IMG/VR virus record: IMGVR_UViG_3300031760_004705
Coordinates: 1-64,000 of that record
Length of the DNA stretch: 64,000 nucleotides
Strand: one strand, 5' to 3'
Source of the DNA: a virus
Taxonomy: Duplodnaviria > Caudoviricetes
The notes below the pieces were generated by a model. The model saw only the letters and a program-made list of their open reading frames with translations, made no database searches and was not told the origin of the DNA. A program made the position numbers and the translations under genes. Below, piece by piece: positions 131-25,121 of the stretch (positions are counted from its first letter, which is position 1; every line of letters starts with the position of its first letter).

Positions 131-2023
131 ATGGATAACCTTTATAAAGAAGATAGTATTGAATCTTTGTCCCCTCGTGAACACGTACGTTTGCGGCCAG
201 GCATGTATGCTGGCGATACCAGTGATGCTACTCAACTTGCAATTGAGATTCTTGGTAATGCAATTGACGAATATAATATTGGTCATGGTAACACTATTGA
301 TGTTATTGTTAATAAAACTCTAGTGTCTATTATGGATCAAGGACAAGGATTCCCAATTAATGTTATGCGCGAAGATGGAGAGACTGTCCTGCAAGCATCC
401 TTTGATGTTATCAATACTTCTGGTAAATATCGTGATGATGGAGTATATGAAGGTACTGCAATTGGCTTAAATGGTATTGGTAGTAAACTTACTAACTTTT
501 TAAGTCACAATCTTTCTGTAGTCTCTTGGAATGCAAAAGGTGAATATGAAATGATTCACTTTTCTGAGGGAGAATTTGTTACACGAGAAACTGGAAAAGA
601 AAATCATCACAGTGGCACATTGGTAACTTTTTCTCCTAGTGAAGAGTTCTTTGATTCTCCACAGGTAAATCAAAAAAAGTTGCTTAACTTTTGTGAAGAT
701 ATTACTTGTCTATGTCCAGGGTTAACTATTAATTTTAATGGTACAGATATTAAACATGAAAATGGAATACAAGATCTACTAAAGAAGCATCTTGGAAAAG
801 AGATTGAGATTATCAATAATCCTCTAATTATCCAAGAGAAGAAAGATAAGCAAGCGATTTCTCTTGCTATGAGTTATACTACTCGTGGTAGTTCTACTAT
901 TGTTCCTTATGTTAATTGTGGACTTACATCCGCGGGACCTCATATTACTTCAATTAAGTCTACAATTACTCGTATACTTAATAAGTGGGCAAAAGAACAG
1001 AATATACTTAAAGCAAAAGATAAGAATCTTGATGGTGCATCTTTGCAAGAAGGTATGATACTTGTAGCTAACATTACTGCAGAAGGTGTATCATATGATG
1101 CACAGGTTAAATCTACTATTACAAAAATTGATACAAGTTTTATATCTTCTACTCTTGGAGAACAACTTGAAATTTGGCTTGACAATAATATTGAAGATGG
1201 AAAAAACATTATTGAAAAAGCTCTTGTTGCTCGCAAAGCTGCAGAAGCCGCAAAGAAAGCTCGAGAGCGTGTTAAGGCTAAAGCTGCGACTCCTGTAAAG
1301 GCTAAAGCAATTCAACTTCCTACTACTCTTACGGATTGTTGGAGTAAAAATCGTAGTCAATGTGAGCTATTTGTCTGCGAGGGTAAATCAGCAGCCGCGG
1401 GTTTGGTAGCTGGACGAGATAGTGAGACTCAAGCTATCTATGGTGTTCGTGGTAAAATGCTTTCTGTTCTTAAAACTGCTGCAAGTAATATTTATAAGAA
1501 TCAAGAGATTAATAATCTTGTTCAAGCTCTTGGACTTGACGTAGATGAAAAAACTTGTAAACTTGTATATGACGAAAAGAAACTTCGTTATGGTAAGATC
1601 ATTGCCGCGGCCGACGCAGATTTTGATGGTTTTGCAATTGAAAATCTTTTGTTTAATATTCTTTGGTATATGTGTCCAGAACTAATTACTAATGGTCATG
1701 TATATTCTGCAGTTCCTCCACTGTTCCGCGTAACTACTAAGAAGAACGAATATGTTTACTTGCGGGATGCAGAAGCTCTTGCGGCATATCAAAAGGAACA
1801 TGGAGCACAAGTTCAGTCCATCGGCCGCCTAAAGGGTCTTGGTGAGCAGGACAGTGACGAGCTTAGTTATTGTCTACTTGATCCTGAGACTCGCAATGTA
1901 CTTCAACTTAAAGTTGAAGATTATGGTAAGACCGATAAAATGTTCCAAGATCTATACGGTAAGCGAGTAGAACCTCGTGTTCAGTTCCTCGCACAACATC
2001 TAGAGGAGGCCCGAGTTGATTAA
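131..2023 (+). CDS. Type IIA DNA topoisomerase subunit B (GyrB/ParE-like)
   Basis: GHKL motifs (EILGNAIDE, DQGQGFP, GLNGIGSKLTN), TOPRIM motifs (EGKSA, DADFDG), KGLGE; SD AGGAGG before ATG 131; no TGA. Confidence 0.95.
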   Translation: MDNLYKEDSIESLSPREHVRLRPGMYAGDTSDATQLAIEILGNAIDEYNIGHGNTIDVIVNKTLVSIMDQGQGFPINVMREDGETVLQASFDVINTSGKYRDDGVYEGTAIGLNGIGSKLTNFLSHNLSVVSWNAKGEYEMIHFSEGEFVTRETGKENHHSGTLVTFSPSEEFFDSPQVNQKKLLNFCEDITCLCPGLTINFNGTDIKHENGIQDLLKKHLGKEIEIINNPLIIQEKKDKQAISLAMSYTTRGSSTIVPYVNCGLTSAGPHITSIKSTITRILNKWAKEQNILKAKDKNLDGASLQEGMILVANITAEGVSYDAQVKSTITKIDTSFISSTLGEQLEIWLDNNIEDGKNIIEKALVARKAAEAAKKARERVKAKAATPVKAKAIQLPTTLTDCWSKNRSQCELFVCEGKSAAAGLVAGRDSETQAIYGVRGKMLSVLKTAASNIYKNQEINNLVQALGLDVDEKTCKLVYDEKKLRYGKIIAAADADFDGFAIENLLFNILWYMCPELITNGHVYSAVPPLFRVTTKKNEYVYLRDAEALAAYQKEHGAQVQSIGRLKGLGEQDSDELSYCLLDPETRNVLQLKVEDYGKTDKMFQDLYGKRVEPRVQFLAQHLEEARVD

Positions 2024-4115
2024 TGAAATTGACATTATCAGTGAGGTTCAACAGAACTTTATTGATAGTAGTTATGATACTAATACCAATCGTGCATTCC
2101 CAGATATTCGCGATGGTTTAAAGCCTGGACAACGAGCTTGTCTTTGGGAAATGTATACTAAGAAATATACTAGCAAAAAGCCCCATGTAAAATCTGCGAA
2201 GATTTCTGGCGGAGTTGCAGCTCTATGGTGGCCACATGGTACTACTGCAATCTATGAGACTTTTGCTCGTATGTCCCAACCTTTTACAAATAATATACCG
2301 GAGGTAGATTTTCATGGATCAAATGGTAACATCATCCTCGGAGGGGATGCAATCGCCGCAGATCGATACACAGAAGCTCGACTCAGCCCAATTGTTGAAT
2401 GTGGAATGTTGTCTGGAATCAATAAGAGAGTGGTTCCAATGCAAGCCAATTTTAGTGAAGACGATGAGTGGCCGCGAGTTTTTCCAGCAGTATTCCCAAG
2501 ACTTCTCGTCAACGGAGCTCAAGGAATTGGAGTTTCTCTATCGAATGTGTGGCTCCCGCACTCCTTCAGTGAGTCCGCAGAATTGCTCCTTCGTTATATT
2601 AAAACAGGAGAACTAGATGAAGATAATTTTTATCCTGACTTCCCCACTGGTGGAACAATTATTAATAAAGATGAACTTGCCACAATTAATAAGACAGGTC
2701 GAGGTAAAGTTATAGTTGAAAGTAAGTTTACTGTTTCTGGGCAAGAAATTGATTTTTATGAATTACCTTATCAAGTCTTTATTGAGCCTGTAATTGATGA
2801 AATTAAAAAAGCCATTGACGAAGAAAAAGTCACTGGTGTTGCAGATGTTTATAATAAATCTGATAAAAAGCGTATCTCTCTTGTAGTTACATGTATACCA
2901 GGAGTTGAACCTTATAAAGTTGTTGCTCAATTATTTGCGGCTACCAATCTACGCAAACAATTTAATGCTAATCAAAATGGAATTATTAGTAAAACTCCTA
3001 TTATGATTACGTTAAAGAAATATGTTGATACATATATTGAGCATAATACTGGTTGTATTAAAAAAGAATATGAATATGATCTTGCGGCTGCACGTAAGAG
3101 AATCCATATTCTTGAAGGATTATCAATTGCTCTTGAGAATATTGATAATGTTCTTGCTCTTATTAAACAGAGTGAAAACAAAGCGATTGCCGCAGTTAAT
3201 CTTTGTGAAAAGTATCATCTAAGTAGAGAGCAAGCTGATGCTATTCTCGCTATGACTTTAAGCCGTCTTACTCATATGGATCAAATTGCTATTAACAAAG
3301 AACTCCAAGAGAAGAAAGAGTTGGCTTTAATCTGTCAAGAAGTAATTGAGTCTTATCAAAAACAAAAAGATATTCTCTCTGAGAGATTGCGGGATCTTGT
3401 TAAGAAATTTGGAGACAAGCGCCGCACAGCTGTAATTCAAAAAGATATTCCTAAAACATCTACGGCTCGCAAAGCTAAAGAGCTTATCATTGAAGATGTT
3501 ATTGTCACTCGTACAATGCAAGGATATTTGAAGAGCACTCCTGTAAAAGCTTATCGTGAAGCTAGAGTTAATATTGAAAAGGTCAAAGCCCGCACAGATG
3601 ATATACTTTTACTATTCTCTTCTCTTGGAAAATTATATCGTCTAAAAGTTAGTGAGATTAAACAATGTGCGGCGGGTGATAAAGGTACTGCTCTTGGAGC
3701 AATCCTTACTCTTGATCCAACTGAAAAGATTTTGTTTATGACCAATATGAATATTGATCAGAAACATCCTTATATCACGGGAGTAACAGAACAAGGTCTT
3801 GTAAAGAAATCAGATAAGACTATCTTTATTGGTAGCACCCAGAATAAACGTGGTATGAAATGCGCTGGACTTAATGAAGGAGATAAGTTTATTTGGTTTG
3901 GTGAGACTAATGGCGATCATATGGTTCTTTATACTGAAAATCATATGGGTATCCAATTTAAACTTGATGAAATTAATCCTGTAGGTAAAACAGCTAAAGG
4001 TGTTAAAGGTATTAATCTTGGAGATACAGATAAAATAGCTAGGGTCACTGTAGGGCCTGAGTCCAAGAAATTACCGGTACAGCATAGAGCTGGAAAAGGA
4101 ATTAAGCTCTCCTAA
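2016..4115 (+). CDS. Type IIA DNA topoisomerase subunit A (GyrA/ParC-like)
   Basis: RDGLKPGQR, HGT, catalytic-Tyr motif AADRYTEARL, NGAQGIGV, C-terminal pinwheel-like repeats; TTG start with SD GAGGAGG. Confidence 0.95.
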   Translation: MINEIDIISEVQQNFIDSSYDTNTNRAFPDIRDGLKPGQRACLWEMYTKKYTSKKPHVKSAKISGGVAALWWPHGTTAIYETFARMSQPFTNNIPEVDFHGSNGNIILGGDAIAADRYTEARLSPIVECGMLSGINKRVVPMQANFSEDDEWPRVFPAVFPRLLVNGAQGIGVSLSNVWLPHSFSESAELLLRYIKTGELDEDNFYPDFPTGGTIINKDELATINKTGRGKVIVESKFTVSGQEIDFYELPYQVFIEPVIDEIKKAIDEEKVTGVADVYNKSDKKRISLVVTCIPGVEPYKVVAQLFAATNLRKQFNANQNGIISKTPIMITLKKYVDTYIEHNTGCIKKEYEYDLAAARKRIHILEGLSIALENIDNVLALIKQSENKAIAAVNLCEKYHLSREQADAILAMTLSRLTHMDQIAINKELQEKKELALICQEVIESYQKQKDILSERLRDLVKKFGDKRRTAVIQKDIPKTSTARKAKELIIEDVIVTRTMQGYLKSTPVKAYREARVNIEKVKARTDDILLLFSSLGKLYRLKVSEIKQCAAGDKGTALGAILTLDPTEKILFMTNMNIDQKHPYITGVTEQGLVKKSDKTIFIGSTQNKRGMKCAGLNEGDKFIWFGETNGDHMVLYTENHMGIQFKLDEINPVGKTAKGVKGINLGDTDKIARVTVGPESKKLPVQHRAGKGIKLS

Positions 4116-4153
4116 AAAAGGGACTTTACAAGTCCCTTTTTTTATTATATAAT
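4114..4153 (+). terminator. Intrinsic terminator overlapping a promoter (TTTACA 4125-30 in the loop, 17 nt, TATAAT 4148-53)
   Basis: aaaaaagggact-ttaca-agtcccttttttt directly after the topoisomerase A stop. Confidence 0.8.
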
Positions 4154-4176
4154 ATTATTAAAAGAAAGGAGAATTT

Positions 4177-5304
4177 ATGAGTGAACTTTATCCTGGCAGC
4201 TATCAATTAGAGCCTATGAAATATAATGGTAAACCATCACAAGCTCTTATTGATGAAGCTTTTAAAGGTAATGGCAAATGGGTAGCCCAGCAGAAGTATG
4301 ATGGTGCTCTTTATATGCTAGAAAAAATTGATAATGATCATATTTATTTGTTCGCAAGAACTAAATCTCGTAAGACAGGTGAACTTGTTGAGAAAAGTGC
4401 TAATGTTCCGCATATAGTAGAATGGGCCAAATCTCTTCCAGATGATACCGTTTTGCTAGGAGAAATTTATGTTCCTGGTGGTAAGAGCAATGATGTAACA
4501 AAAATTATGGGATGTACTCCAACCAATGCTATTGCTAGACAAAAGGGCAAAGGCTATGGTGGATTTATACATTATTATGTTTTTGATTGCATTCGTTTTA
4601 ATGGCATTGATCTTTGCAATACTGGATTTGTAGCTCGTTTTAAAAAATTCCAAGACTGGTTCTATACTCAAGATATTAGTGTTTACGTAGAAATGTCTCA
4701 TGTTTATACTGAGAATTTTGAAGAAAGACTTCATAGTATTCTTGCTGATGGCGGCGAAGGTATGGTATTTAAAAAGTTTGATGCCGTATATGAGCCAGGC
4801 AAGCGTCCAACTCGTACTTATTTCAAAATGAAACAACATATGGATAGTCTTGATCTAGTGTGCATTGGACTTGAAGATCCAATCCGAATCTATACGGGCA
4901 AAGAAATTGAAACTTGGCAGTATTGGATTCAGCGTGGCGAACAAGATCAAAATGGTGCATATCAATGGCATGATTATTATGGTTATCATTATAAAGATTA
5001 TCAGTATAATCCGCATCTTTGGGAACCTGTAACCAAGCCTTGGTTCTTCGGCTGGAAAAATGCTATGACACTTGGTCTTTATAAAGACGGACAACTTGTA
5101 GAAATTGGTAGAGTAGCTTCTGGACTTACCGATGCTATACGTGAAGATATGGCAAATAATCCAAATAATTACATTGGACATGTTGTAGAAGTAGAATGCA
5201 TGTCTACTACTAAGGATGGAGCATTGCGGCATCCTGTGTTTATTCGCATGCGAGACGACAAAGCTCCTGAGGATTGTAAATATGAGGAGGTGTTTAATGT
5301 ATAA
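4177..5304 (+). CDS. lig: ATP-dependent DNA ligase
   Basis: KYDG adenylation motif, LLGE, FDC, EGMVFK, KMK, C-terminal OB fold LRHPVFIRMRDDK. Confidence 0.93.
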   Translation: MSELYPGSYQLEPMKYNGKPSQALIDEAFKGNGKWVAQQKYDGALYMLEKIDNDHIYLFARTKSRKTGELVEKSANVPHIVEWAKSLPDDTVLLGEIYVPGGKSNDVTKIMGCTPTNAIARQKGKGYGGFIHYYVFDCIRFNGIDLCNTGFVARFKKFQDWFYTQDISVYVEMSHVYTENFEERLHSILADGGEGMVFKKFDAVYEPGKRPTRTYFKMKQHMDSLDLVCIGLEDPIRIYTGKEIETWQYWIQRGEQDQNGAYQWHDYYGYHYKDYQYNPHLWEPVTKPWFFGWKNAMTLGLYKDGQLVEIGRVASGLTDAIREDMANNPNNYIGHVVEVECMSTTKDGALRHPVFIRMRDDKAPEDCKYEEVFNV

Positions 5305-5662: not shown

Positions 5663-5720
5663 ATATTAAGAAATAAAATAAAAGGAACAAAGTTCCAAAA
5701 GAGAGAAAAGGAGTCTCATT

Positions 5721-7042: not shown

Positions 7043-7703
7043 TTTTCAAACAATAGAAGTTGCGGGATTTGCACCTGCAATTATGGGTATGCGTCATCCA
7101 TTAAAGTCTTATGATAAGGCAGATAGTTCTTATGATGAAGAAGGCATCCTTCATATTGGACAAAATGATTATGATTTAGCTAGACGACTTTGTCAAGCAG
7201 GAGGTCCTGAACATGCAAAGTTTCTTCGACAGATTGAAGTATGAGTAAATATTACAGCACCAAGATTTTGGTGGGTAGAAGAAGCAACTTATAAAATCGG
7301 TACAACTGAAAATTCTCAGTCTACAATGCATACTCTAATGCGCGATGGGGTTAAACCAGAAGATATTTATTTTATTTTTGGTGAAGATGAAATTGCTAAT
7401 AATGCTATGCTTACTTATATTCAAGCAATTAATGATCTTATTGACCTTTATAAACAGCTAGAACCTGGTGATATTAAAGAACAATATTTCGAGAAGATTA
7501 AAGCTATGCTTCCTGAAGGTTTTCTCCAGACTCGTATGGTAAGTCTTAATTATCAAGTTCTTCGTACTATGTATAATCAGCGCAAAGGTCATCGTCTCTC
7601 TGGATGGAATACTGATTTTGTAAATTGGGTTAAAACACTTCCAGTTTCTGAGTGGATTACAGGTGATTTTCCTGAGCCGGAAAATGTAGTTGACGGGCAA
7701 TAA
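7035..7703 (+). CDS. ThyX-fold-like phage protein (222 aa, 1 TGA=Trp)
   Basis: Track ORFs 7035 and 7326 join via TGA 7242-44: KFLRQIEV[W]VNITAPRFWWVEEATYKIGT..NSQSTMH, a recurrent phage family; lacks the RHRx7-8S ThyX motif. Confidence 0.6.
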
Positions 7704-7718
7704 AAAATATATTATAAT
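7690..7718 (+). promoter_or_regulatory. sigmaA promoter
   Basis: TTGACG-N17-TATAAT. Confidence 0.75.
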
Positions 7719-7759
7719 ATAATTGTAATAAAGAGACAAGAGAAAGAGAGAAATTTTAT

Positions 7760-8716
7760 ATGCGACAGAATAAGAATGTAGTTTATGTAGAGGGTTATGT
7801 TTATAATTATAGTCTCTTTGCAAACGTAGCAGGTCCGAATAGTAAGAATCCTGGTCAGGAGTATATCAACGGTACTGTTAACATTGCAACTGACGAGGAT
7901 GGTATTAATATCGTAAGTGTTCGTTATACTTATGTTATTCCGACTTGGAAGAGTGGTAAGGAGAATGAGACTTATACTATTCTTCAGGCTCTTCTAAATG
8001 GTGCTCCTACTTGGGAGAAGGATGGTAAGGACAAGGCGACTAAGCTTCGCATTCAGGGTGATGTAGAAGTTAATGATTTTATGGGTCGCGATGGTAACAT
8101 GGTTGAAACCAAGCAAGTTCGTGGTGGTTTCACTCATTATGCAAATGATGGATTCCGTGATAAGCGTAATAACTTTGAAACTGATATGCTTATTACAAGT
8201 GCAGTTCGTGTAGAAGTCGAAAATGGAAATGATTATATGAACCTTTCTGGTTATGTATTTAATTTCCGTAATGACTTTATTCCTGTAACTTATACTCTTA
8301 ATAACGAAGCTGGTATCAAGTATTTTGAGAGTCTTGATATTTCAATGAACACCCCTTATTATACTTATGTTTGGGGTAAGATTGTTTCTTCCACTCAGCG
8401 TATTGAGAAGCAGGTAGAGACTGCTTGGGGAGCTCCGCAAGTTGAATATACTACTCGTACTCTTCGTATGTGGGAAGTTGAAGGATGCTCACCTGAGTCT
8501 TACGAATTTGATGATGATTCTACAATTACTCTTGCAGAGTTTAAGCAGGGTCTTGCAAATCGTGAGCAGCAGAAGGCAGAAGCTAAAGCTCGTCAGGAAG
8601 CTCGTAATGCTTCTACCACCGGTAAATCTGGATTCCCCGCAACTACTGATGCGGATCTACCTTTCGGTGCTCCAACTTCTTCTTCTCCAACCGCAGCTTC
8701 TAACTTCAAGTTTTAG
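7760..8716 (+). CDS. Single-stranded DNA-binding protein-like (two OB-like halves)
   Basis: Beta-rich, flexible low-complexity tail ending in Phe, high-expression codon bias, lies next to a Sak4-like ATPase. Confidence 0.6.
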   Translation: MRQNKNVVYVEGYVYNYSLFANVAGPNSKNPGQEYINGTVNIATDEDGINIVSVRYTYVIPTWKSGKENETYTILQALLNGAPTWEKDGKDKATKLRIQGDVEVNDFMGRDGNMVETKQVRGGFTHYANDGFRDKRNNFETDMLITSAVRVEVENGNDYMNLSGYVFNFRNDFIPVTYTLNNEAGIKYFESLDISMNTPYYTYVWGKIVSSTQRIEKQVETAWGAPQVEYTTRTLRMWEVEGCSPESYEFDDDSTITLAEFKQGLANREQQKAEAKARQEARNASTTGKSGFPATTDADLPFGAPTSSSPTAASNFKF

Positions 8717-8729
8717 GAGGTAACCACAT

Positions 8730-9734
8730 ATGGCGATTGACATTTTTGCAATTAAACCACATGAGGTCAGTCGCGACCTCTGTGGTTACACTGTTCTTCT
8801 TTATGGTCAACCTAAGACCGGTAAAACTACAACCGCGGCTCAGTTCCCGCAAGCACTTCTTTGTGCATTTGAAACTGGTTATCTTGCTATTCCTGGTGTA
8901 ATGGCACAGCCAGTAAATAAATGGTCTGAGTTTAAGCAAATTCTAAAGCAGCTTGATTCAGATCAAGCACGTCAGCAATTTAAAAATGTAATTGTTGATA
9001 CTGTAGATATTGCATATGATCTTTGTGAGAAATATATTTGTAATCAAAATGGTGTTTCAACTGTAGGTGATCTTGCATATGGTAAAGGCTATGCTCTTGC
9101 AAAGAAAGAGTTTGATGAAGCTCTTCGCAAGATTCCTCAAATGGGATATGGTCTTGTAATGATTTCTCATGCGCAAGATAAGACTTTTAAGGATGAAAAT
9201 GGCGATGAATACCAGCAAATCGTTCCTACTCTTGCAAATCAGCCTCGTCTTGTAGTTGACCGTATGAGTGATATTATTGGTTATGCACATCCCTTCCAAG
9301 AGGAAGATGGAACTGTTCATACTACTCTATTTATGCGCGGTACCCCTCGGTTTGTAGCTGGTTCTCGATTCAAATATACACCTGATAGTATCGAGTTTAG
9401 TTATGATAACCTCGTTAATGCAATTGGTGATGCAATCGATCGGCAAGCAAAAGATTTCGGAGGACAATACGTAACCGATGCCCCTACTCAAGCTCATGTC
9501 GCAGAACCAGAACTTGATTTTGACGCGCTTATGGCTCAGTTCAATGAACTCGTATTTAAGATTCAAAATGCAACTGGTGGAGCATTTGGTACGACATGGG
9601 CACCTCGCATTGTAGCTATTACAGATAAGTATCTAGGTAAGGGCAAGAAAGTTTCTGAAATGTCTCGTGATCAGGTAGAACAACTTGTACTTATTGTAGA
9701 TGATCTTACGGAAGCTGTTGGTAATGGACTATAG
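8730..9734 (+). CDS. AAA_24/Sak4-like ATPase (ssDNA-annealing recombinase family)
   Basis: Walker A YGQPKTGKTT, Walker B VIVDTVD, ISHAQDK, typical context beside SSB. Confidence 0.8.
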   Translation: MAIDIFAIKPHEVSRDLCGYTVLLYGQPKTGKTTTAAQFPQALLCAFETGYLAIPGVMAQPVNKWSEFKQILKQLDSDQARQQFKNVIVDTVDIAYDLCEKYICNQNGVSTVGDLAYGKGYALAKKEFDEALRKIPQMGYGLVMISHAQDKTFKDENGDEYQQIVPTLANQPRLVVDRMSDIIGYAHPFQEEDGTVHTTLFMRGTPRFVAGSRFKYTPDSIEFSYDNLVNAIGDAIDRQAKDFGGQYVTDAPTQAHVAEPELDFDALMAQFNELVFKIQNATGGAFGTTWAPRIVAITDKYLGKGKKVSEMSRDQVEQLVLIVDDLTEAVGNGL

Positions 9735-9735
9735 A

Positions 9736-9942
9736 ATGAATGTTGGTAATGAGCTTGCTCAAATAAAAAATTGTAAAACTATAGATGAAATTAAAAAATT
9801 TCTTGAAGATCATAATTTAAAATTTGATCATTGGTATCTTGATACAAGCACTTCTGAGAATACAGATACAAAAGGATTATATGTAGTTGCTTATTATCAA
9901 GATATTGATGGAGTATTCATTCAAATTAGTTTTAATTTTTAG
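9736..9942 (+). CDS. Hypothetical protein (68 aa)
   Basis: ATG 9736 just after the upstream TAG; open frame. Confidence 0.55.
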   Translation: MNVGNELAQIKNCKTIDEIKKFLEDHNLKFDHWYLDTSTSENTDTKGLYVVAYYQDIDGVFIQISFNF

Positions 9943-10032
9943 GGGTAGACAACTAACGGGGAGTTAGGACCGCCTGCTAAGCGGATCGTACTCTGAAAAG
10001 AGTATTGGTGTCGGATACCAGTTGCCCCGCCA
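9942..10032 (+). tRNA. tRNA-Ser(GCT)-like, long variable arm, encoded CCA, non-canonical core
   Basis: GGGGTAG../TTGCCCC-G-CCA acceptor, G73, anticodon arm CCGC-CTGCTAA-GCGG, variable arm TACTCT-GAAA-AGAGTA, T arm TGGT-GTCGGAT-ACCA. Confidence 0.8.
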
Positions 10033-10041
10033 GATTATTTC

Positions 10042-10072
10042 AGCCGTTCTCTTCGGAGAGCGGCTTTTTTAT
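10042..10072 (+). terminator. Intrinsic terminator after the tRNA
   Basis: agccgttctc-ttcg-gagagcggct followed by a T tract. Confidence 0.9.
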
Positions 10073-10101
10073 TTGACAGAAACAAAAATATATGTTATAA
10101 T
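10073..10101 (+). promoter_or_regulatory. sigmaA promoter of the helicase/primase operon
   Basis: TTGACA-N17-TATAAT with TGn extension. Confidence 0.9.
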
Positions 10102-10133
10102 AAATTAATAAAAATATCTATGAAAGGAGTGTA

Positions 10134-10610: not shown

Positions 10611-10621
10611 GAGGTATACGT

Positions 10622-12133: not shown

Positions 12134-12142
12134 GATAATAAT

Positions 12143-12403
12143 ATGATTGATACAAGATTATGTAAATCAGAAGAAGAATTACTATTAGCGATGCAATATG
12201 AAAAAGATAAAGTATTATTATCCCAACATCGATCTAAGTTATTTAAATTAAAAGCACAATTGCAAAATTTAGATTATTTAATTTTCTATGAACAATCAAC
12301 TATAAATAAGTTAGAAGAAGATATTAATAATTTTAAAAAACAATATGGCTATATGATAGTAAAAGAAGGAGGGGATGTATCATATCTTACGACAAAGAGT
12401 TAG
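12143..12403 (+). CDS. Hypothetical coiled-coil protein (86 aa)
   Basis: Open frame with SD, heptad pattern. Confidence 0.6.
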   Translation: MIDTRLCKSEEELLLAMQYEKDKVLLSQHRSKLFKLKAQLQNLDYLIFYEQSTINKLEEDINNFKKQYGYMIVKEGGDVSYLTTKS

Positions 12404-15432: not shown

Positions 15433-15435
15433 TAA

Positions 15436-15464
15436 TTGACAGAAGCAAAATAATATGGTATAAT
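15436..15464 (+). promoter_or_regulatory. sigmaA promoter of dnaE
   Basis: TTGACA-N17-TATAAT with TGn extension. Confidence 0.9.
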
Positions 15465-15497
15465 TAATTTAGAAAATTAAGAGAGAAAGAGGTTTAA

Positions 15498-18400
15498 ATG
15501 GCGCGATTTGAGATGCATAGTCATAGTGATATGAGTAATATTCGTCTTATTGATTGCATTAATACAGTTGACTCTCTTGTTGATTATGCCATTGAAATTG
15601 GTCTTGAAGGTATTTGTTTAACTGATCATGAAGCTCTTGGCAATTGGGTTAAACTTGATCAAAAGAGACAACAAGTTCAAAAAGATCATCCAGATTTTAA
15701 GATTGGATATGGAAATGAAATTTATCTTGTGGATGAACGTGGGGCTGATAATATTCACAATAATGGTGGAAAATATTTTCACTTCATCTTAATTGCTAAA
15801 GACCCAATAGGTGCTAAGATGTTGCGGAAACTCTCTTCAAATTCTTGGATGAATAGTTATTTTGATCGTGGTATGGAGAGAGTTCCCACTCTTAAAAGTG
15901 AAGTTGAAGCCTGTATTCGAGAATTTGGTAAAGGTCATCTTATTGCATCTACTGCTTGTCTAGGTAGTGAATTAGATTATTGTATTCTTGAAATGGATAA
16001 GGCTGAAAAGCTAAATAATCTTGAAGGTAAAATAGAATATTATAATAGAATTGTTGATTTTATTGAGTGGTGTGAATATTTCTTTGGTGATGATTTTTAT
16101 CTTGAAGTACAACCTGCTCAGAGTAAAGAGCAATTAATTGTTAATAAACGTATGAAAAGTATTGCAGATTACTTTGGATTAAAAGTTGTTGTAACAACCG
16201 ACGCACATTATCTTCGTAAAGAAGATAGAGAAGTTCATAAAGCTTTTCTTAATTCTAAACAAGGTGATCGAGAAGTTGATAGTTTTTATAGTTATGCGTA
16301 TCTTCAGACAACAGAAGAAGTAATTCAAAATCTTGAAGGAACAGGTTTTGATTATTATATGCTTGAGTTGAATACTCATGAAGTAAAAAATAAGATTCAA
16401 AATTTTGGTTTTGAACATAAGCAACAGGTTCCGCAAGTTCCAGTAAAAGATTATCCTAAAGTAATGTCTAAAATGGGATATAAAACTCTTGATTATCTTT
16501 ATTCAAGTGATAATCCGCAAGAAAGATATTGGGTAAATTATTGTTGCGATAAACTTAGAGAATTAAATCTTTTTAATGATATTTATCTTGCACGACTTGA
16601 AGAAGAAGCTGATATTCAAAAAGTAATTGGAGATAAACTTGGAACTTGCATGTTCGCATATCCAATCTTTTTGCAGCATTATATTGATTCATTCTGGGAA
16701 ATTGGATCTACAGTAGGTGCGGGACGAGGTTCTGCATGTTCTGGATTGAATCATTATCTTCTTGGTATTACTCAGCTTGATCCAATTAAATATAATCTTC
16801 CTTATTGGAGATATAGTAATAAGGAACGTATTGAGCTAGGTGATATTGATATTGATATTTGTCCATCAAAGAGAGAAGAAATTTTTGCTTCAATCCGAGA
16901 AGAAGTTGGACAGCTTGGATGTGTACAGGTTTGTACATACGGCACAGAAACAACACGTTCAGCAATTTCAACTGCTTGTCGTGGTTATCGTTCAAAAGAT
17001 TTTCCTGATGGAATTGATAACGATGTAGCTCAGTATATGACAAGTCTCGCTCCAAGTGAACGAGGATTTGTTTGGCCGGTACATGATTTGGTTTATGGTA
17101 ATGAAGAGAAAGATCGTAAGCCAGTTAAAAATTTCTTGGCAGAGGTTAGAAAATATCCAGGACTTCTTGAAATTATTGAGAAGATTGAAGGATTGATTAA
17201 TCATAGAGGTATTCATGCAAGTGGCGTAAACTTTTACATGGATGATCCTTTTGATAGTGCTTGTTTTATGAAAGCGACAAGTGGAGCAATTGTAACTCAA
17301 TTTTCTCTTCATGATGCAGAGTATTGCGGCGACGTTAAATTTGATTTTCTTGTTACAGAAATTCAAGATGTAATTGTTCAATGTCTTAATATGTTAAGTG
17401 AATATAATGAAGTTGATCAACATTTGACTCTGCGACAATTATATGATAAATATCTTCATCCAGATGTTCTTCCAATAGAAGATAACAAGATATGGGATAC
17501 TCTTGCAGAAGGTAAAGTATTAAAACTTTTTCAGTTTGATAGTCAAGTTGGAAGTCAAACTGTAAAGATGTTGCGGCCAAGGTCACCACGTGAAATGGCA
17601 AACTGTAATTCTGTAATGAGATTGATGGCTGCGGAAAAGGGTGGAGAAACTCCAACTGAGAGATATAAAAGAATGAAAGATAATATGTCTCAGTGGTATG
17701 ATGAAATGCGACGATGGAGGATTTCTTCATCAGATCAAAAGATTCTTGAAAAGTATTATCTTGAAACATATGCGACGCCCGCACAGCAAGAAGATATGAT
17801 GATGATTTTGATGGATGAAGATATTTGTAATTTTAGTCTTAAAGAAGCTAATGATGCCCGCAAGATTTGTGCAAAGAAACAAATGAATCGTATTGAAGAG
17901 TTGCATGAATTGGTTTTATCAAAAGCAACTTCAAGACAGCTTGGTGAATATGTTTGGGAAACTGCAATTAAGCCGCAAATGGGATACAGTTTTAGTCTTA
18001 TTCATAGTTTGGCATATAGTTTTGTAGGACTTCAAACAATTTATCTTGCAACATATTTTGATCCTGTCTATTGGAATACTGCATGTCTTAGAGTAGATGC
18101 AGGACTTGATGAAGATGCAAGTAGTAATTATGGTAAAATTGCAAAGGCAGTAGGTAATATTATTCATCGTGGTATTCCAATGTCATTAATTGATATTAAT
18201 AAGTCTGGATATATGTTTGAGCCAGATGTAGAAACTGGTAGTATTGTATATGGACTTAAAGGATTAAATGGTGTTGGTGGAGAGATTATTCAAGAAATTA
18301 TTGAAAATCGCCCATATGAAGGATTAGTTGATTTCCAAGAGAAAGTTAAAGTTAAAAAGCCAGTTTTGATTTCATTAATTAAGAGTGGTGCATTTGATAA

Positions 18401-19340
18401 ATTTGGAAATCGAGAAGATATAATGCGGGAATACGTTTGGTCAATTTGTGAACCAAAAAAGAGAATTACATTACAAAACTTCAATGGATTAATGGAAAGA
18501 AATCTTATTCCTGCAGAATTAACATTTGAAAAAAGATTATTCGTATTTAATAAGGCTCTTAGAAAATATTGTAGAGTTAATGATTATCTTTTGGTAAATG
18601 ATAACTTCTATGATTTTTATGAAGAGTTTTTCGATGTAGATTTGCTTGAACCTTTTGAAGAAGGATTAGCAATCAAAGAAACAACATGGAAAAAAATATA
18701 TACAAAAGGTATGGATAAAGCTCGTAATTATTTTAGAGAACATCAAGATGAATTGCTAAATCAGCTTAATCAAACTTTATTTAATGAAGTTTGGAATAAA
18801 TATGCGGCTGGTACATTAGCTACATGGGAAATGGATAGTCTAGGATTTTATTATCATGATCATCCATTGAAAAATCTTGATAAGTTAAGTTATAATGTAA
18901 TTCCATACAATCAACAACCGGATACTCCGCCAGTTGAAAGAACTTTTAAACGTAATGGTATTGATATTCCATTGTTTAAAACTTGTAGAATTGTGGGCGC
19001 GGTTGTTGCAAAAGAAGATAATAAATCTTGTATTAGTATTCTAACTCCTGAAAGTGGAGTAGTTACAGTTAAAATGAGTAGAGATTATTATGCAAGATTA
19101 AATCGACAAATGAGTCAAGTTCAACCAGATGGTACTAAAAAAGTAATGGAAAAAGGTTGGTTTACTCGTGGAACATTAGTAATGGTGAACGGATTTAAAC
19201 GTTCTGGAATGTTCTTCACAAAGTCATATCGTCATACGAAATCTCATCAGTGTTATCGTATCTTGACGGGAGTAAAAAATAATGGTAAAATAGATATGAC
19301 AGCATGGAGATGGGGAGAAGAAGGTGACGATGAAAACTAA
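15498..19340 (+). CDS. dnaE: DNA polymerase III alpha subunit (family C, PHP domain)
   Basis: PHP HSHSD/TDH/TDAHY, GAGRGSA, DIDID, GIHASG, KFDFL, GYSFSLIHS; about 19 Trp, all TGG. Confidence 0.95.
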   Translation: MARFEMHSHSDMSNIRLIDCINTVDSLVDYAIEIGLEGICLTDHEALGNWVKLDQKRQQVQKDHPDFKIGYGNEIYLVDERGADNIHNNGGKYFHFILIAKDPIGAKMLRKLSSNSWMNSYFDRGMERVPTLKSEVEACIREFGKGHLIASTACLGSELDYCILEMDKAEKLNNLEGKIEYYNRIVDFIEWCEYFFGDDFYLEVQPAQSKEQLIVNKRMKSIADYFGLKVVVTTDAHYLRKEDREVHKAFLNSKQGDREVDSFYSYAYLQTTEEVIQNLEGTGFDYYMLELNTHEVKNKIQNFGFEHKQQVPQVPVKDYPKVMSKMGYKTLDYLYSSDNPQERYWVNYCCDKLRELNLFNDIYLARLEEEADIQKVIGDKLGTCMFAYPIFLQHYIDSFWEIGSTVGAGRGSACSGLNHYLLGITQLDPIKYNLPYWRYSNKERIELGDIDIDICPSKREEIFASIREEVGQLGCVQVCTYGTETTRSAISTACRGYRSKDFPDGIDNDVAQYMTSLAPSERGFVWPVHDLVYGNEEKDRKPVKNFLAEVRKYPGLLEIIEKIEGLINHRGIHASGVNFYMDDPFDSACFMKATSGAIVTQFSLHDAEYCGDVKFDFLVTEIQDVIVQCLNMLSEYNEVDQHLTLRQLYDKYLHPDVLPIEDNKIWDTLAEGKVLKLFQFDSQVGSQTVKMLRPRSPREMANCNSVMRLMAAEKGGETPTERYKRMKDNMSQWYDEMRRWRISSSDQKILEKYYLETYATPAQQEDMMMILMDEDICNFSLKEANDARKICAKKQMNRIEELHELVLSKATSRQLGEYVWETAIKPQMGYSFSLIHSLAYSFVGLQTIYLATYFDPVYWNTACLRVDAGLDEDASSNYGKIAKAVGNIIHRGIPMSLIDINKSGYMFEPDVETGSIVYGLKGLNGVGGEIIQEIIENRPYEGLVDFQEKVKVKKPVLISLIKSGAFDKFGNREDIMREYVWSICEPKKRITLQNFNGLMERNLIPAELTFEKRLFVFNKALRKYCRVNDYLLVNDNFYDFYEEFFDVDLLEPFEEGLAIKETTWKKIYTKGMDKARNYFREHQDELLNQLNQTLFNEVWNKYAAGTLATWEMDSLGFYYHDHPLKNLDKLSYNVIPYNQQPDTPPVERTFKRNGIDIPLFKTCRIVGAVVAKEDNKSCISILTPESGVVTVKMSRDYYARLNRQMSQVQPDGTKKVMEKGWFTRGTLVMVNGFKRSGMFFTKSYRHTKSHQCYRILTGVKNNGKIDMTAWRWGEEGDDEN

Positions 19341-19683
19341 ATATTATGTAGGAGATCCTATGATTCCTTGGTGGGTTGAAAAATTGGCCCACCAAGGGCT
19401 TATTAAAGCTGTTAGAGAATCTGCCGCAATTACTTTCTTTATGGTTTATAAAGATAGCTTTGATGATACCGACGATCATTATCTTTATGATGGAGATTAT
19501 ATTGAATTAGATGAAGAAACTGGAGCTGTTACAATTGGTCACGCAGATTGGGAAAAAGCTCTTGCAGAAGATTTTCAAAAAGTAAATTGGGATAAATTTG
19601 TAAGTTCTTTAAGAAAGACAGTCAAAGATAAAGAACGGAAGGAAGAAAATGAAACCAATTATTATAGCAATTACTGGGCCTAG
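19330..19683 (+). CDS. Hypothetical protein
   Basis: Open frame overlapping the dnaE stop, SD AAGGTG. Confidence 0.6.
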   Translation: MKTKYYVGDPMIPWWVEKLAHQGLIKAVRESAAITFFMVYKDSFDDTDDHYLYDGDYIELDEETGAVTIGHADWEKALAEDFQKVNWDKFVSSLRKTVKDKERKEENETNYYSNYWA

Positions 19684-20239
19684 TTGCGCGGGTAAAGATA
19701 CTTTAATGCGGCAGTTATATTGAGAATTTTCCAAAGACTATGAAAAATTAGTTAATTATCCAGATGTATATTATATAGTTAGTTCAACTACTCGGCCGCC
19801 AAGAAAAAATGAAATCAATGATAGGGATTATCATTTTATCACTAACAAAGAATTTCTACATAAGATTATTAATAATGAAATGTTAGAATGGGCTCCTTTT
19901 CATAATTGGAAATATGGAACAGAAAAAAGATCAATTAGTGATAAACCTAAAGCAATTAATATTGGAGTTTTTAATCTCCAAGGAATTGATAGTTTAAATA
20001 ATCAAACTGATTTTAGAATTATTCCAATCTATCTTCAAGTTCCTTGGAAAGAAAGATTGCGGCGATCTATTAAACGTGAGGGACATTTAACTTTTGAAAT
20101 GATTCGTCGCTTGTTCACTGATTATAAAGATTTTAAAAACCCATGGGAAATTTTAAATAAGAGTGGTAATCTTTTAACTTATTCTGGAGATTATAATATA
20201 GATGATGTCATGCGCGATGTTCTGGGCAAAATTAAATAA
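19649..20239 (+). CDS. gmk: Guanylate kinase-like NMP kinase (196 aa, 1 TGA=Trp)
   Basis: P-loop GPSCAGKDT, STTRPPRKNEINDRDYHF, MLEW..WKYGT; ATG 19649 is in frame with track ORF 19880 through one TGA. Confidence 0.85.
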
Positions 20240-20306
20240 TATATATAAATAAAAATACATTTAATAAGTAAGGAAAAATCATTCGATATAAAATGATAGG
20301 AGATTT

Positions 20307-20540
20307 ATGTTAATATTATTTTCTACTGGTTGCCCTAAATGTCGAGTGTTAGAGCAAAAATTAAATAAACAAAATATTGCTTTTGAAATTTGTGATGATA
20401 TGCAAGAAGTAATAGATAAAGGTTTTATGTCTGCACCAATTCTTAAACTTGGAGACGATTATATGGATTTTGTAACAGCTGTTACTTGGTTAAATGAAGA
20501 AGCTGCTATGAAATCTGACTGTGATAGTTGCCAAATTTAA
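20307..20540 (+). CDS. nrdH: NrdH/glutaredoxin-like redoxin with an extra C-terminal CDSC tail
   Basis: STGCPKC, MSAPIL; first gene of the RNR cluster. Confidence 0.8.
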   Translation: MLILFSTGCPKCRVLEQKLNKQNIAFEICDDMQEVIDKGFMSAPILKLGDDYMDFVTAVTWLNEEAAMKSDCDSCQI

Positions 20541-20549
20541 GGAGTATAT

Positions 20550-22463
20550 ATGAAGCTTAATGTAAAATTAAATAAGAATTTTCAAACTCAATTTAATAGG
20601 ATGGTTGAAAAATATGGTGAAGAGTTTCTAAAACTTCAAGGTTTTGATGAAGCTACTCTTAGTTTTACAGATTTTATTGAAGGATTTATTGATTCTGATA
20701 ACGTAGCTAATACTTCTATTGATGCTAATGCTAATATTGCTCAGAAAGATATTGTAACTTTACTTTCTGAAATGTCTAAACCAGATCAAAAATTATTAGT
20801 CTTTAACAAACTTTATTATGAGATTAATAAAAAATATGGATATAAAATTGCCAATGAAGCTATGGAAGCTATGTGGTCGTATTCTCTTTATATGCACGAT
20901 TTTAATACTGCCACTTTAGTTCCATATTGTTTTGCATATGATATTAAACCAATAGCAGAAAAAGGACTATTCTTTATTCAAGGTTATAATGCTAAGCCTG
21001 CGAAACATTTAGATAGTTTTATTCAAATTTTAATGGAAGCAATTGCTTTCCTTAGCCGCAGACAATCAGGAGCTTGCGGCCTACCTAATTTAATTCCATA
21101 TCTTTACTACTATTGGAGTAGAGATGTAGCTCAAGGATATTATACCAAAGACCCAGAAACTTATAAGAAGCAACAAATCCAGGCTCTTATTCATCGTTTA
21201 AATCAGCCTTGGGTTCGTTCAGATCAAGCTGCATTTACTAACGTAAGTGTATTTGATCATCCTTATTTTGAAGCTATCTTTGGTGGCGGAGAGTTTCCTG
21301 ATGGTAGTTTTATGATTGATGAAGAAGATGAAATCATTGAATTTCAAAAAGATTTTATTAATGTCGTAAATGAAATTCGTGAAGAGAATGTATTTACATT
21401 CCCTGTTCTTACTGCATCTTTACTTTATCAGGATGGAAAATTTGTAGACGAAGAGTTTGCAAAATGGGCTTGCGAAGCATCCCGCAAATGGAATATTTTT
21501 AATTTCTTTACTGATTCTACAGTTAATAGTCTTTCTAATTGTTGCAGATTAAAGAGTGATATTACGGATCTTTATTTTAATTCAATTGGAGGAACAGCTC
21601 TTGAAGTTGGTTCTGCTAAAGTGTCTACTCTTAATATTGCACGTCTTGCTTATCAAAGTGAAAGCGAACAAGATTTCTTAGTTAAATTGCGCGATTTAAC
21701 TAAACTTAATTTAAAGATTCTAGATGTTCAACGTAATATTATTTATCGTAATGTAGAAAAAGGTTTGCTACCAAACATTTCTTGTGGTCTAATGAATCTT
21801 GATGCTATGTACTCTACAGTTGGAGTAAATGGTATTTTTGAAACAATGAAGACATTTGGATATACAGAAGTAGATGACTTTGGTAATTATAGCTACACAG
21901 ACCAAGCATACGATCTTGGACAGCGTATTTTTAAAGTAATTCAAAATTGCATTGATAACTTTGCTTTAGATAAAGATTATAAAATTAATATTGAGCAAGT
22001 TCCTGCAGAGCAGGCCGCAGTAAAACTTCAAAAAGCTGATGAATATTTATATCCCGATCAAGTTGTTAAAGATTTACCTTTATACGGTAATCAATGGATT
22101 CCTCTTGGAATTAAGGCTACTATCCAAGAGAGAACAAAAATCTGTGCGGCATTTGATAGTTATTGTAATGGTGGATCAATCGAACATATCAATGTAGATG
22201 CACCTTTTACTAATTTTGATCAAGCTTGATACATGTTAAATTGGGTTGCACAACAAGGTGTTACTTATTTCGCTTTTAATGGTAAAGTAGCTCAATGTAA
22301 AAATTATCACAGTTTCTATGGAAAAGTTTGTCCAATATGCGGCGAACCTGTAGAAACAGAATATACTCGTGTAGTTGGTTTTTATACTCCAACAAAGAGC
22401 TATTCTAAACAGCGTAAAGCAGAGTTTAACCTTCGTCAATGGGATAATTTAAATGAAAATTAA
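20550..22463 (+). CDS. nrdD: Class III anaerobic ribonucleotide reductase (637 aa, 1 TGA=Trp at 22227-29)
   Basis: NCCRL finger loop, EQVPAE, NGGSIEHIN; FDQA[W]YMLNW joins to the Zn and glycyl-radical domain (CPICG..TRVVGF). Confidence 0.92.
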
Positions 22464-22929
22464 AGGTATTATTTTTGAAGATTTTATTAATTACAAAAAA
22501 CCGTCTATGGTAATTGAGTTTCCATATTGTAATTTTAAATGTGATAAAGAATGTGGACAACAAGTATGTCAAAATTCTAAGTTAGCTAAAGCTCCTAATA
22601 AAGATGTTTCTATAACTAATCTTGTAAAAACATATATGAATAATAATATTACTGAAGCAATTGTTTTTCAAGGACTAGAACCTTTTGATTCAAAAGATGA
22701 TCTCTATCAATTAATAAAAGTATTTAGAGAATATACTAATAATGATATTGTTATTTATACAGGATATACTGAAACAGAACTTGATTATGAAATTGAAACA
22801 TTAAAACGCTTATTTAAAAATATTATTATTAAATTTGGCCGTTTTATTCCAGATCAACAATCTCGTTTTGATGAAATTTTAGGAGTAACATTAGCGAGTT
22901 CTAATCAATATGCTAAAAAGATTTGTTAG
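22453..22929 (+). CDS. nrdG: Anaerobic RNR activase (radical SAM)
   Basis: CNFKCDKEC..CQN, QGLEPF, IYTGY, KFGRF, SSNQYA. Confidence 0.88.
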   Translation: MKIKGIIFEDFINYKKPSMVIEFPYCNFKCDKECGQQVCQNSKLAKAPNKDVSITNLVKTYMNNNITEAIVFQGLEPFDSKDDLYQLIKVFREYTNNDIVIYTGYTETELDYEIETLKRLFKNIIIKFGRFIPDQQSRFDEILGVTLASSNQYAKKIC

Positions 22930-23120: not shown

Positions 23121-23124
23121 TAAA

Positions 23125-23160
23125 AGGGTAGATATTTGAAATATCTACCCTCTATTTTTT
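23125..23160 (+). terminator. Intrinsic terminator
   Basis: agggtagatatt-tga-aatatctaccct followed by a T tract. Confidence 0.85.
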
Positions 23161-23166
23161 TATCTA

Positions 23167-23195
23167 TTGACAGAAAAAAATTTTTTTGTTATAAT
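23167..23195 (+). promoter_or_regulatory. sigmaA promoter
   Basis: TTGACA-N17-TATAAT with TGn extension. Confidence 0.9.
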
Positions 23196-23226
23196 ATATA
23201 TAGAAAATGATGAAAGGAGTGTTTTT

Positions 23227-23592
23227 ATGGCTGATGTAGCACTTGGTAATTTATATGAACTTAATAAGCAAGTTATGGCACAACTTCCACCGCAGAGCGA
23301 TGAAATTTTAAATCGCAATTGAACAATTATTGGAGATTGATTTGGTAGAGATCAAGATCGATGGTTCATGCTAATGTGTAAAGAACGTTCTGATTTTACT
23401 TTATTTCATATTACAGACCATCAATTTGTAAAAGCTATCCAAGAGTTGAAAGAAGTACTAGAAGAGCGTGGTCAAATCCTTGCAATTCAATATTTACATG
23501 GTGAAGATGCTTTTGAGATTTGAGTAAAAAATGATGAAGAAGTATTTATGTTTATGCTTTTCTCTGCGGGATGAATGGTAATTGAAATTTAA
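23227..23592 (+). CDS. Conserved-looking phage protein (121 aa, 4 TGA=Trp), absent from the ORF track
   Basis: SD AAGGAG, MADVALGNLYELNKQ..WFMLMCKERSDFTLF..FEI[W]V..MVIEI-TAA. Confidence 0.75.
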
Positions 23593-23605
23593 GAAGGTGA
23601 CTAAA

Positions 23606-23863
23606 ATGTACAAACTAGTTGTAATAGCAGATCCTTTACAGGAAACAGAAATTTATGAAGTTACTTCAATGGGAGATTTACATAAAATTTCTCAGTTAAA
23701 AGTTCCGCAGGAGTCTGTTGAATTTATTAAAAATTATTCTAACAGTGTTAAAGAAAAAGTAGATGTAACTTATGTAGGACCTACAGATTATATTCGTTAC
23801 TTTATAAGTCAAGCTAATAATCTTGAATATGTATATGCGCATATGAATGAAATTGGAGGATAA
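23606..23863 (+). CDS. Hypothetical protein
   Basis: SD AAGGTG, ATG 23606. Confidence 0.6.
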   Translation: MYKLVVIADPLQETEIYEVTSMGDLHKISQLKVPQESVEFIKNYSNSVKEKVDVTYVGPTDYIRYFISQANNLEYVYAHMNEIGG

Positions 23864-24163
23864 ATGATTAAATATCTAATTAAGAATACTGCAGAAATTC
23901 GTGTAGAGTCCGAAGAAGATGCCAATGCTCTTCATAAAGAATATGAAGATTTTGCTCGTGATAATGCTTATATTCTAAATTCTTGGTCGCAAACTTATCG
24001 TACTAAAAAGTCTGGCGGAGAAATTGTAGAAGAATGGTGGATTTGTAAAGTTGTTCTAATCTTTAACGATGCTAAGGCTCCTGATATTCCTCTTGATAAT
24101 ATTGATTTTAATATGCAAAAACTTATTTCTATGGATAATATTTCTCCTTGGGATGAGGCGTAA
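23864..24163 (+). CDS. Hypothetical protein (99 aa)
   Basis: SD GGAGG; abuts its neighbours. Confidence 0.65.
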   Translation: MIKYLIKNTAEIRVESEEDANALHKEYEDFARDNAYILNSWSQTYRTKKSGGEIVEEWWICKVVLIFNDAKAPDIPLDNIDFNMQKLISMDNISPWDEA

Positions 24164-24627
24164 TGAAATTTATGAGAATACATTGCACAGATAAATCTGA
24201 TGATTTTATTATAAATATTAAATATCTTCCAGGTGCGCATGAGCTCGAGCAGGTAGAGTGAGGTTCTTGAATTGATCTTTATACTTATGAAGAAACGAGT
24301 TTAAAGCAAGGTGATCAGAAATATATTAATCTTGGTATTGCAATGAAATTACCAGAAGGATATGAAGCAATTGTAGCTCCACGTTCTTCTACATTTAAAA
24401 ATTGGGGAATTACTCAGACCAATAGTATTGGAGTTATTGACTCTACTTATTGCGGAGATAATGACATTTGGATGTTTCCTGCTCATGCAACTAAAACAAT
24501 AACAATTCCCGCAGGAACACGTATTTGTCAATTCCGAATCCAAAAGGAACAACCTAAAATTACATTTAATAAAGTTGAGACTCTTGGAGAGAAAGACCGC
24601 GGCGGGCTAGGGAGCTCTGGTCTATAA
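24163..24627 (+). CDS. dut: Trimeric dUTPase (154 aa, 2 TGA=Trp)
   Basis: [W]GS[W]IDL (motif I), APRSS, GVIDSTYCG, RICQF, RGGLGSSG. Confidence 0.92.
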
Positions 24628-25121
24628 TGCGGCGAACATTAGCATTAGATCAAGCTAGTCGTGTCACTGGCTGAGCTATTTACGATAATAAGAATTTAGT
24701 TACAAGTGGTCATTTTTCAATTGCCGCAAATAAAACTATGCAACAAAGATTGTTATCTTTTATTGATCATTTAAATGAATTAATTGATAAATATAATGTA
24801 GAAAAAATTTATTATGAAGGTATTCAATATCAAAATAATATTGAAACATATAAAAAATTAGCATATATTCAAGCTATGATTATATATAATACTACTGTTC
24901 ATAATTTGCCTATCTTAGAATTAACTCCATCACATTGAAGAAGTCTTATTAAAGATAAACATGGAGTTAAATTTGGTCGTTCACGAACTGAACAAAAACA
25001 AAAAGCACAAGAATTTGTAAAAGAACATTTTAATATTAACGCTACTGAAGATGAAGCAGATGCGATTTGTTTGGGGTACGCAGGAATATTAGAGGACGAA
25101 AAAAATAAATCTGCTTTTTAA
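24627..25121 (+). CDS. ruvC: RuvC-like Holliday junction resolvase (164 aa, 2 TGA=Trp)
   Basis: LALDQASRVTG[W]AI, IYYEGIQ, TPSH[W]RS, DEADAICLG. Confidence 0.88.

Follow-up and report, generated by a model that had tools for sequence, protein, structure and literature searches.

Uneven use of TGA tryptophan codons across the replication genes of a recoded tailed phage

The TGA-recoded "Agate" phages, with genomes of about 127-154 kb, keep their replication machinery in the standard code and carry in-frame TGA in structural and lysis genes; they have very close standard-code relatives, suppressor transfer RNAs (tRNAs) in some members, and an endonuclease in an early gene that strongly prefers TGA (Borges et al., 10.1101/2021.08.26.457843; published 2022). 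The same authors proposed that, through recoding, late and lysis proteins appear only after the code change has taken effect, an idea that is without an experimental test to date, and later reviews regard the motive for recoding as still unsettled. Block-wise dual coding, with early genes in the standard code and late genes recoded, is shared by the crAss-like phages, whose late blocks read TAG as glutamine or TGA as tryptophan and in which recoding is not in every case accompanied by suppressor tRNAs (review PMC10136315; proteomic validation PMC9523058). The subject here is the distribution of in-frame TGA over the genes of a virus of the Caudoviricetes, studied in a stretch of 64,000 nucleotides (the window) that forms the first 64 kb of the 88,423-bp contig IMGVR_UViG_3300031760_004705, classed by its source as linear and about 59% complete. 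Like the Agate phages, this phage reads TGA as tryptophan, sets standard-code replication genes against TGA-coded late and lysis genes, carries a TGA-preferring endonuclease, and has very close standard-code relatives as well as a relative with a suppressor tRNA; the likeness to the published description lies in size range, code, and layout. The crAss-like phages, in contrast, are an unrelated lineage, the present phage having a GH25 and Amidase_5 endolysin and a DnaE polymerase 39% identical to YorL of Bacillus phage SPbeta, which is also the best DnaE match among GenBank phages, where no close relative was found. Whereas Borges et al. treat the replication machinery as a block, a gene-by-gene gradient and a comparison with the neutral rate of change are reported here.

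TGA is read as tryptophan in this genome (code 4). Coding density is 0.71 under table 11 but 0.97 under table 4, and the median length of the open reading frames (ORFs) increases from 118 to 196 amino acids once TGA is taken as sense; the + strand block that opens the window (59-25121) gains little (0.88 to 0.97), the - strand block that follows much more (0.64 to 0.97). When TGA positions were masked before alignment to two standard-code relatives, 53 of 102 fell opposite tryptophan, against a tryptophan background of 1.6%, and the phage's own TGG codons did so in 107 of 180 cases. Column patterns at orthologous tryptophan sites agree with this assignment, the TGA columns of the RecJ gene, for instance, being TGG in standard-code relatives.

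The two strands differ sharply in TGA usage (Fisher p=2.7e-30). The core replication genes, which comprise both topoisomerase subunits, the ligase, Sak4, DnaB, the primase, DnaE, and two unnamed genes, together hold 57 TGG and no TGA codon, whereas TGA makes up 204 of the 258 tryptophan codons (79%; 204 TGA to 54 TGG) in the - strand block of the whole contig. The TGA-free genes and the late block are listed below, with identities from Pfam and PHROGs and with codon counts, here and throughout, as TGA/TGG per gene.

59-2023, + strand: GyrB-like topoisomerase subunit (TopoB), 0/6
2016-4115, + strand: GyrA-like topoisomerase subunit (TopoA), 0/6
4177-5304, + strand: ATP-dependent ligase, 0/9
within 7690..13455, + strand: phrog_2367 protein, TGA-free
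8730-9734, + strand: Sak4-type AAA_24 ATPase, 0/2
orf9700, + strand: 0/1
within 7690..13455, + strand: phrog_4680 protein, TGA-free
10622-12133, + strand: DnaB helicase, 0/6
orf12143, + strand: no tryptophan codons
12439-13455, + strand: Toprim primase, 0/3
15498-19340, + strand: DnaE polymerase, 0/19
within 15436..19683, + strand: orf19324, 0/5
25168..64000, - strand: late block of endolysin, tail-fibre genes, head genes, and very large tail proteins
start of the late block, - strand: GH25/Amidase_5 endolysin, 15/5

Region 59..5304, from TopoB to the ligase, thus contains 21 TGG and no TGA, and the TGA-free core at 7690..13455 has 0 TGA to 18 TGG with orf9700 counted in; the other two frames of DnaE contain 24 and 98 TGA. 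The first-pass annotation of this DNA had drawn the same line between a TGA-free replisome and other + block genes with 1-5 TGA each, and had described lysis and tail genes as using mostly TGA; its counts are correct. It had also placed a single-stranded DNA-binding protein among the TGG-only genes, a call that stands unverified, as no ORF, the phrog_4680 protein included, was confirmed as one.

Base composition does not account for this division. As a neutral control, the choice between A- and G-ending codons at Lys, Glu, and Gln was scored for each gene. In the - block, the TGA fraction (0.79) stands beside an A-ending fraction of 0.83 and follows A-ending preference with a slope of 0.93, and TGA in late genes acts like any other synonymous codon. 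The + block, in which 0.76 of the control codons end in A, has a TGA fraction of 0.18. That local AT content alone sets the TGA fraction is therefore scarcely credible: G+C content at third codon positions (GC3) and A-ending preference each explain some variance within the + block (p ~0.0015), yet the block effect persists after GC3 (p=2.2e-12), as a check proposed at the outset had called for, and after the A-ending control (p=1.6e-21), and DnaE, with 76% A-ending Lys/Glu/Gln codons, has 0 TGA of 19 (p=1.2e-12). DnaB, the primase, and orf19324 likewise have A-ending fractions of 0.89-0.92, yet 0 TGA in 14 tryptophan codons. The + block genes are also heterogeneous among themselves (permutation p=1e-5; p=2e-4 after the A-ending control).

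Related genomes carry the argument further. The search for relatives gave 18 related loci, to which five larger records were added, and 14 recoded relatives were used in the comparisons, with gene sets classed solely by their state in the present genome and then scored in the relatives. Only 8 of the 404 tryptophan codons of the replisome set (2%) are TGA in these relatives, its genes otherwise being TGA-free at 45-99% identity with synonymous sites saturated. A second test took only those columns that have TGG in the present genome and is thus independent of its own TGA sites: 4 of 335 replisome codons (1.2%) have become TGA in relatives, none of 200 in DnaE, against a neutral G-to-A change of 53% (601/1129) at G-ending Lys/Glu/Gln codons of the same alignments. 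Parsimony changes, counted family by family on the respective gene trees so as to take account of common descent, give one change in 23 replisome tryptophan columns versus 1.43 per neutral column, a ratio of 0.03; the corresponding ratios of the TGA-bearing sets described below and of the late genes are 1.2 to 1.5. Replisome TGA is thus about 30-45 times rarer than predicted from neutral change, a pattern in the aligned sequences that strongly supports purifying selection as the force that would remove TGA from the core replisome.

A host that itself uses code 4, in which case TGA would have no regulatory meaning, gives no reason for such a 30- to 45-fold depletion, and we regard it as very improbable. 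In its favor, no tRNA(UCA) was found on this contig nor in the recoded relative G004; against it, another relative, G001, encodes its own tRNA(UCA), and the relatives G002 and G003 have a coding density of 0.93 under either code, with no gain under code 4. The host most likely uses the standard code, as TGA avoidance and the tRNA of G001 indirectly suggest. No relative turned up when bacterial genomes were scanned with the endolysin in search of the host.

The remaining genes of the + block include all those that carry TGA.

5721-5969, + strand: MarR-type winged-helix gene, Pfam-supported on this strand, no tryptophan codons
6035-7042, + strand: GIY-YIG homing endonuclease, directly after a terminator, 5/0
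7035-7703, + strand: ThyX-like protein (phrog_6721), 1/5, TGA at codon 70
13404-13652, + strand: small ORF orf13404, 1/3
13636-15432, + strand: RecJ exonuclease, 3/7, TGA at codons 40, 577, and 596 of 598
19649-20239, + strand: guanylate kinase Gmk, 1/4, TGA at codon 25
between 19649 and 22929, + strand: thioredoxin-like small ORF
20550-22463, + strand: NrdD, 1/8, TGA at codon 560 of 637
within 19649..22929, + strand: NrdG activase, no tryptophan codons
23167-23592, + strand: orf23167, 4/1
in the 23125..25164 unit, + strand: orf23582
in the 23125..25164 unit, + strand: orf23864, 0/4
24148-24627, + strand: dUTPase, 3/2
24627-25121, + strand: RuvC-type resolvase, 2/0

Several of these codons lie inside Pfam domain matches, namely NrdD codon 560 (in an NRDD match that extends as far as residue 630), Gmk 25, RecJ 577, and ThyX-like 70, while dUTPase codons 3, 38, and 41 lie just upstream of the domain match, in columns that are TGG or TGA in most recoded relatives. 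The ThyX-like gene does carry its one TGA as first described, but its identity is weak, the Thy1 match (23.1 bits) falling below the cut-off of 24.8. The GIY-YIG gene, initially grouped with accessory replication functions, is instead a free-standing and mobile homing endonuclease, around which an Rfam scan of the window gave no group I intron or other family, and this sets it apart from the endonuclease of the Agate phages.

In the 14 relatives, TGA accounts for 81 of 297 tryptophan codons (27%) in an intermediate set made up of ThyX-like, orf13404, RecJ, Gmk, and NrdD, for 94 of 129 (73%) in a high set made up of GIY-YIG, orf23167, dUTPase, and RuvC, and for 251 of 378 (66%) in late genes. 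At columns with TGG in the present genome, 36 of 186 intermediate codons are TGA in relatives (neutral G-to-A 57%), as are 12 of 24 in the high set (neutral 86%). The intermediate set, with 27% TGA versus about 80% predicted from its A-ending Lys/Glu/Gln fraction and a turnover near neutral, is read as being under weak selection or under constraint that differs between lineages; the latter is supported by the relatives L004, L005, and L013, which carry many more TGA in intermediate genes, L005 having TGA even in DnaB and the primase. For orf23167, dUTPase, and RuvC, TGA use is at the level of late genes, and these three and the homing endonuclease appear to be under no selection against TGA. 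The graded classes suggested at first are thus visible across relatives (2%, 27%, 73%), whereas in this genome alone a three-class mixture is not preferred over two classes (Bayesian information criterion 365.4 for two versus 367.8 for three; Akaike information criterion 358.8 versus 356.9), so that the third class stands on the comparison with relatives.

Gene history could in principle produce the same mixture, if TGA-free or TGA-rich genes had recently been imported from phages with another code. Mobile TGA-rich homing endonucleases, GIY-YIG in the present phage and three or four of the HNH kind in G001, are in keeping with such a mosaic origin, as are the close standard-code relatives and the divergent, TGA-rich NrdD allele of L005 and L013. 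Nevertheless, the replisome remains TGA-free across relatives despite saturated synonymous sites, and TGA and TGG swap in place at orthologous tryptophan columns of RecJ, Gmk, dUTPase, and NrdD, which makes history rather than selection an improbable account. The NrdD allele of L005 and L013, 49% identical and with 5-7 TGA, looks like a gene replacement in an otherwise syntenic block.

Neither does the gradient follow transcription units. Promoters were scored out of 12 against a sigma-A type consensus, TTGACA-17-TGnTATAAT, and the + block holds the following sites.

5577-5605, + strand: perfect promoter, upstream of the MarR gene
10073-10101, + strand: perfect promoter before the phrog_4680 gene, conserved
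15436-15464, + strand: perfect promoter (12/12) before DnaE, conserved
23167-23195, + strand: perfect promoter (12/12) before orf23167, conserved
78-106, + strand: promoter-like site with one mismatch
4125-4153, + strand: promoter-like site with one mismatch
5634-5662, + strand: site with one mismatch (11/12)
7690-7718, + strand: promoter site with one mismatch
4114-4142: intrinsic terminator
5997-6026: terminator hairpin
10042-10065: terminator
23125-23151: terminator
25135-25164: bidirectional terminator

Each of the eight promoter sites is intergenic or borders an intergenic gap, and all are directed toward the genes; a rough estimate from base composition puts the chance expectation at about 0.08 perfect matches per 25 kb. 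In nearly every relative, the sites that precede the phrog_4680 gene, DnaE, and orf23167 reach 11-12/12, while internal gene starts under the same scoring reach 7-11, mostly 8-9. The + block is not one operon, contrary to the single operon first assumed, since it has four perfect and four one-mismatch promoters and five terminators, several of them conserved. TGA use tracks genes rather than transcription units: RecJ stands last ahead of the promoter at 15436, and Gmk and NrdD lie after DnaE in the next unit. The stretch from orf23167 to RuvC (23125..25164) is a separate unit, TGA-rich yet with a conserved consensus promoter that is kept in 13 genomes, so that any delay of its products would be translational. 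Within the window, the late block shows no intergenic consensus sigma-A promoter, near-consensus hits falling only inside genes; beyond the window, the contig has three 11/12 sites at gene edges.

Taken as a whole, these results are probably best explained by a tailed phage with a genome of about 125-150 kb, of which the window is one part, that reads TGA as tryptophan in a host most likely of the standard code, keeps its replisome TGA-free, and has TGA-permissive late genes that would depend on a suppressor. AT-biased mutation would turn TGG into TGA wherever this is tolerated, and replisome proteins would likely have to come from unmodified host translation, before or without the opal-suppressor tRNA of the phage. 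A phage tRNA(UCA) made from a host-type promoter would then accumulate and compete with release factor 2, and protein yield would be roughly the suppression efficiency raised to the power of the TGA count; a single TGA would delay a protein leakily, and 15 would lock it tightly. As judged from codon content, the appearance of TGA-bearing proteins would be delayed. A further step, offered tentatively, is that recoding may act not only as an on/off switch but as a quantitative, multi-step translational delay set by TGA number and strength of selection: the replisome would come first, RecJ and the supply of deoxynucleoside triphosphates would be leaky-early, dUTPase and the Holliday-junction resolvase would be late despite their conserved host-type consensus promoter, and lysis would come last. 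There is biological logic in withholding a junction resolvase up to the time of packaging.

Translational restraint of such an enzyme has a precedent in gene 49 of phage T4 (endonuclease VII), which is translated mainly late, a hairpin in its mRNA hiding the ribosome-binding site. There, as proposed here, a Holliday-junction resolvase is restrained at translation and not at transcription alone; the means differ, the element here being in-frame TGA and not a hairpin. The first-pass annotation had likewise proposed that genes needed early stay host-readable and that TGA acts as a timer. Selection against TGA in the replisome, which is strongly supported, is in line with the former, and the timer is an already published hypothesis.

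The suppressor itself has to be sought in relatives. No tRNA was found on the contig by ARAGORN, plain and relaxed, or with Rfam RF00005, which carries little weight as the contig is a fragment. In the relative G001 (125 kb, DnaE 88% identical, gene order as in this contig), the topoisomerase gene and the head genes are separated by about 50 kb that this contig lacks, an early region whose genes are small and for the most part poor in TGA, and which also holds a tRNA array and many consensus promoters. A tRNA(UCA) lies at G001:76722-76818 (L034:16722-16818), about 370 nt downstream of a perfect 12/12 promoter; it is 97 nt long, with an A1-U72 acceptor stem, a G73 discriminator, and a long variable arm of 7 bp, and ARAGORN labels it tRNA-SeC. 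The A1-U72 pair and G73 resemble those of tRNA-Trp, and the long variable arm is a feature of Ser/Leu-type tRNAs that is unusual for the Trp type. The present phage probably has a tRNA(UCA) of its own in the missing part of its genome. A search of five relatives gave neither a release factor nor a Trp-tRNA synthetase; as they have no RF-1 or class-Ib synthetase domain, there is no code-change module of the Jade type.

Some observations weigh against a suppressor-dependent delay. The promoter upstream of the G001 suppressor tRNA is of the kind that also serves the replisome genes, and any delay could therefore be short. A consensus promoter can still be repressed. A suppressor tRNA is missing not only from this contig but also from a 53-kb contig of the same lineage, which reaches 17 kb beyond the window start and has mainly TGA-poor genes and no tRNA there. 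No canonical tRNA(UCA) was found in G004, which is recoded and 90% complete. Finally, some late genes also avoid TGA, which points to a cost in efficiency besides timing.

The last point bears on a different account, in which efficiency and not timing is decisive: suppression would never be complete, and TGA would be avoided wherever high or precise output is needed. Late genes with a strong G-ending bias indeed have no TGA, such as the one at window 39756-41543 (0/1) and that at genome 82627-83682 (0/4), which has TGG in each of four recoded genomes, and the TGA fraction tracks A-ending preference in both blocks. On the other hand, DnaB, the primase, and orf19324 are TGA-free without codon optimization, and both the heterogeneity of the + block and the block effect outlast the A-ending control (p=2e-4 and p=1.6e-21), which leaves efficiency in place of timing rather unlikely. 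High GC, G-ending preference, and lack of TGA are found together in late - strand genes at window 39756-41543 and at genome 77020-78204, 82627-83682, and 83700-84194; these are probably the most abundant virion proteins, and TGA seems to carry a cost even late.

The pattern is real, statistically strong, and conserved, and it is a further example of a published kind, not a new phenomenon. What the present analysis adds is the gene-level gradient within the replication module, the comparison with neutral change, the promoter map, and the TGA-rich dUTPase and resolvase behind a host-type promoter. With a TGA-depleted replisome, a weakly constrained middle set, and a TGA-rich dUTPase/RuvC unit, the lineage offers a clean comparative case for the proposed delay, and in that last unit, which follows a conserved consensus promoter, control at translation can be told apart from control at transcription. 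There is also a practical side, as gene calling with a single code breaks late genes or hides the early/late boundary.

Two antisense ORFs were set aside as shadow frames. One, at 5666-5962 on the - strand, overlaps the Pfam-supported MarR gene of the + strand; this frame is open in relatives too, with 81% identity in G001. The other lies at 26692-27060. In G004, a weak tRNA-like 3' half (G004:115330-115460, L043:15330-15460; Rfam 21.7 bits) has a CUCCAAA-like loop and a Trp-like 3' end, and may be an odd or split Trp tRNA.

The replication block of G001, on the - strand, has four extra HNH or endonuclease VII homing-endonuclease ORFs that are absent from the window.

L033:3694-4641, - strand: extra endonuclease ORF of G001
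L033:11392-12138, - strand: extra endonuclease ORF of G001
L033:18583-19362, - strand: extra endonuclease ORF of G001
L032:13670-14398, - strand: extra endonuclease ORF of G001

Three of them are TGA-rich (8/1, 5/1, and 5/0), and one, between the topoisomerase genes, has 1/1. Perfect promoters in G001 mostly have an 18-nt spacer in the early region (61000-110000) and a 17-nt spacer in the replication block (32000-61300). Late - strand intergenic regions of the present phage share a terminator followed by a TTATTAGAGAT(A)AGGAG-like sequence, at window 56899-57103 and at genome 65159-65282, 74745-74888, and 76926-77019, two of these four regions also containing GAGATATAAGGA; the shared sequence may be a late promoter or leader motif.

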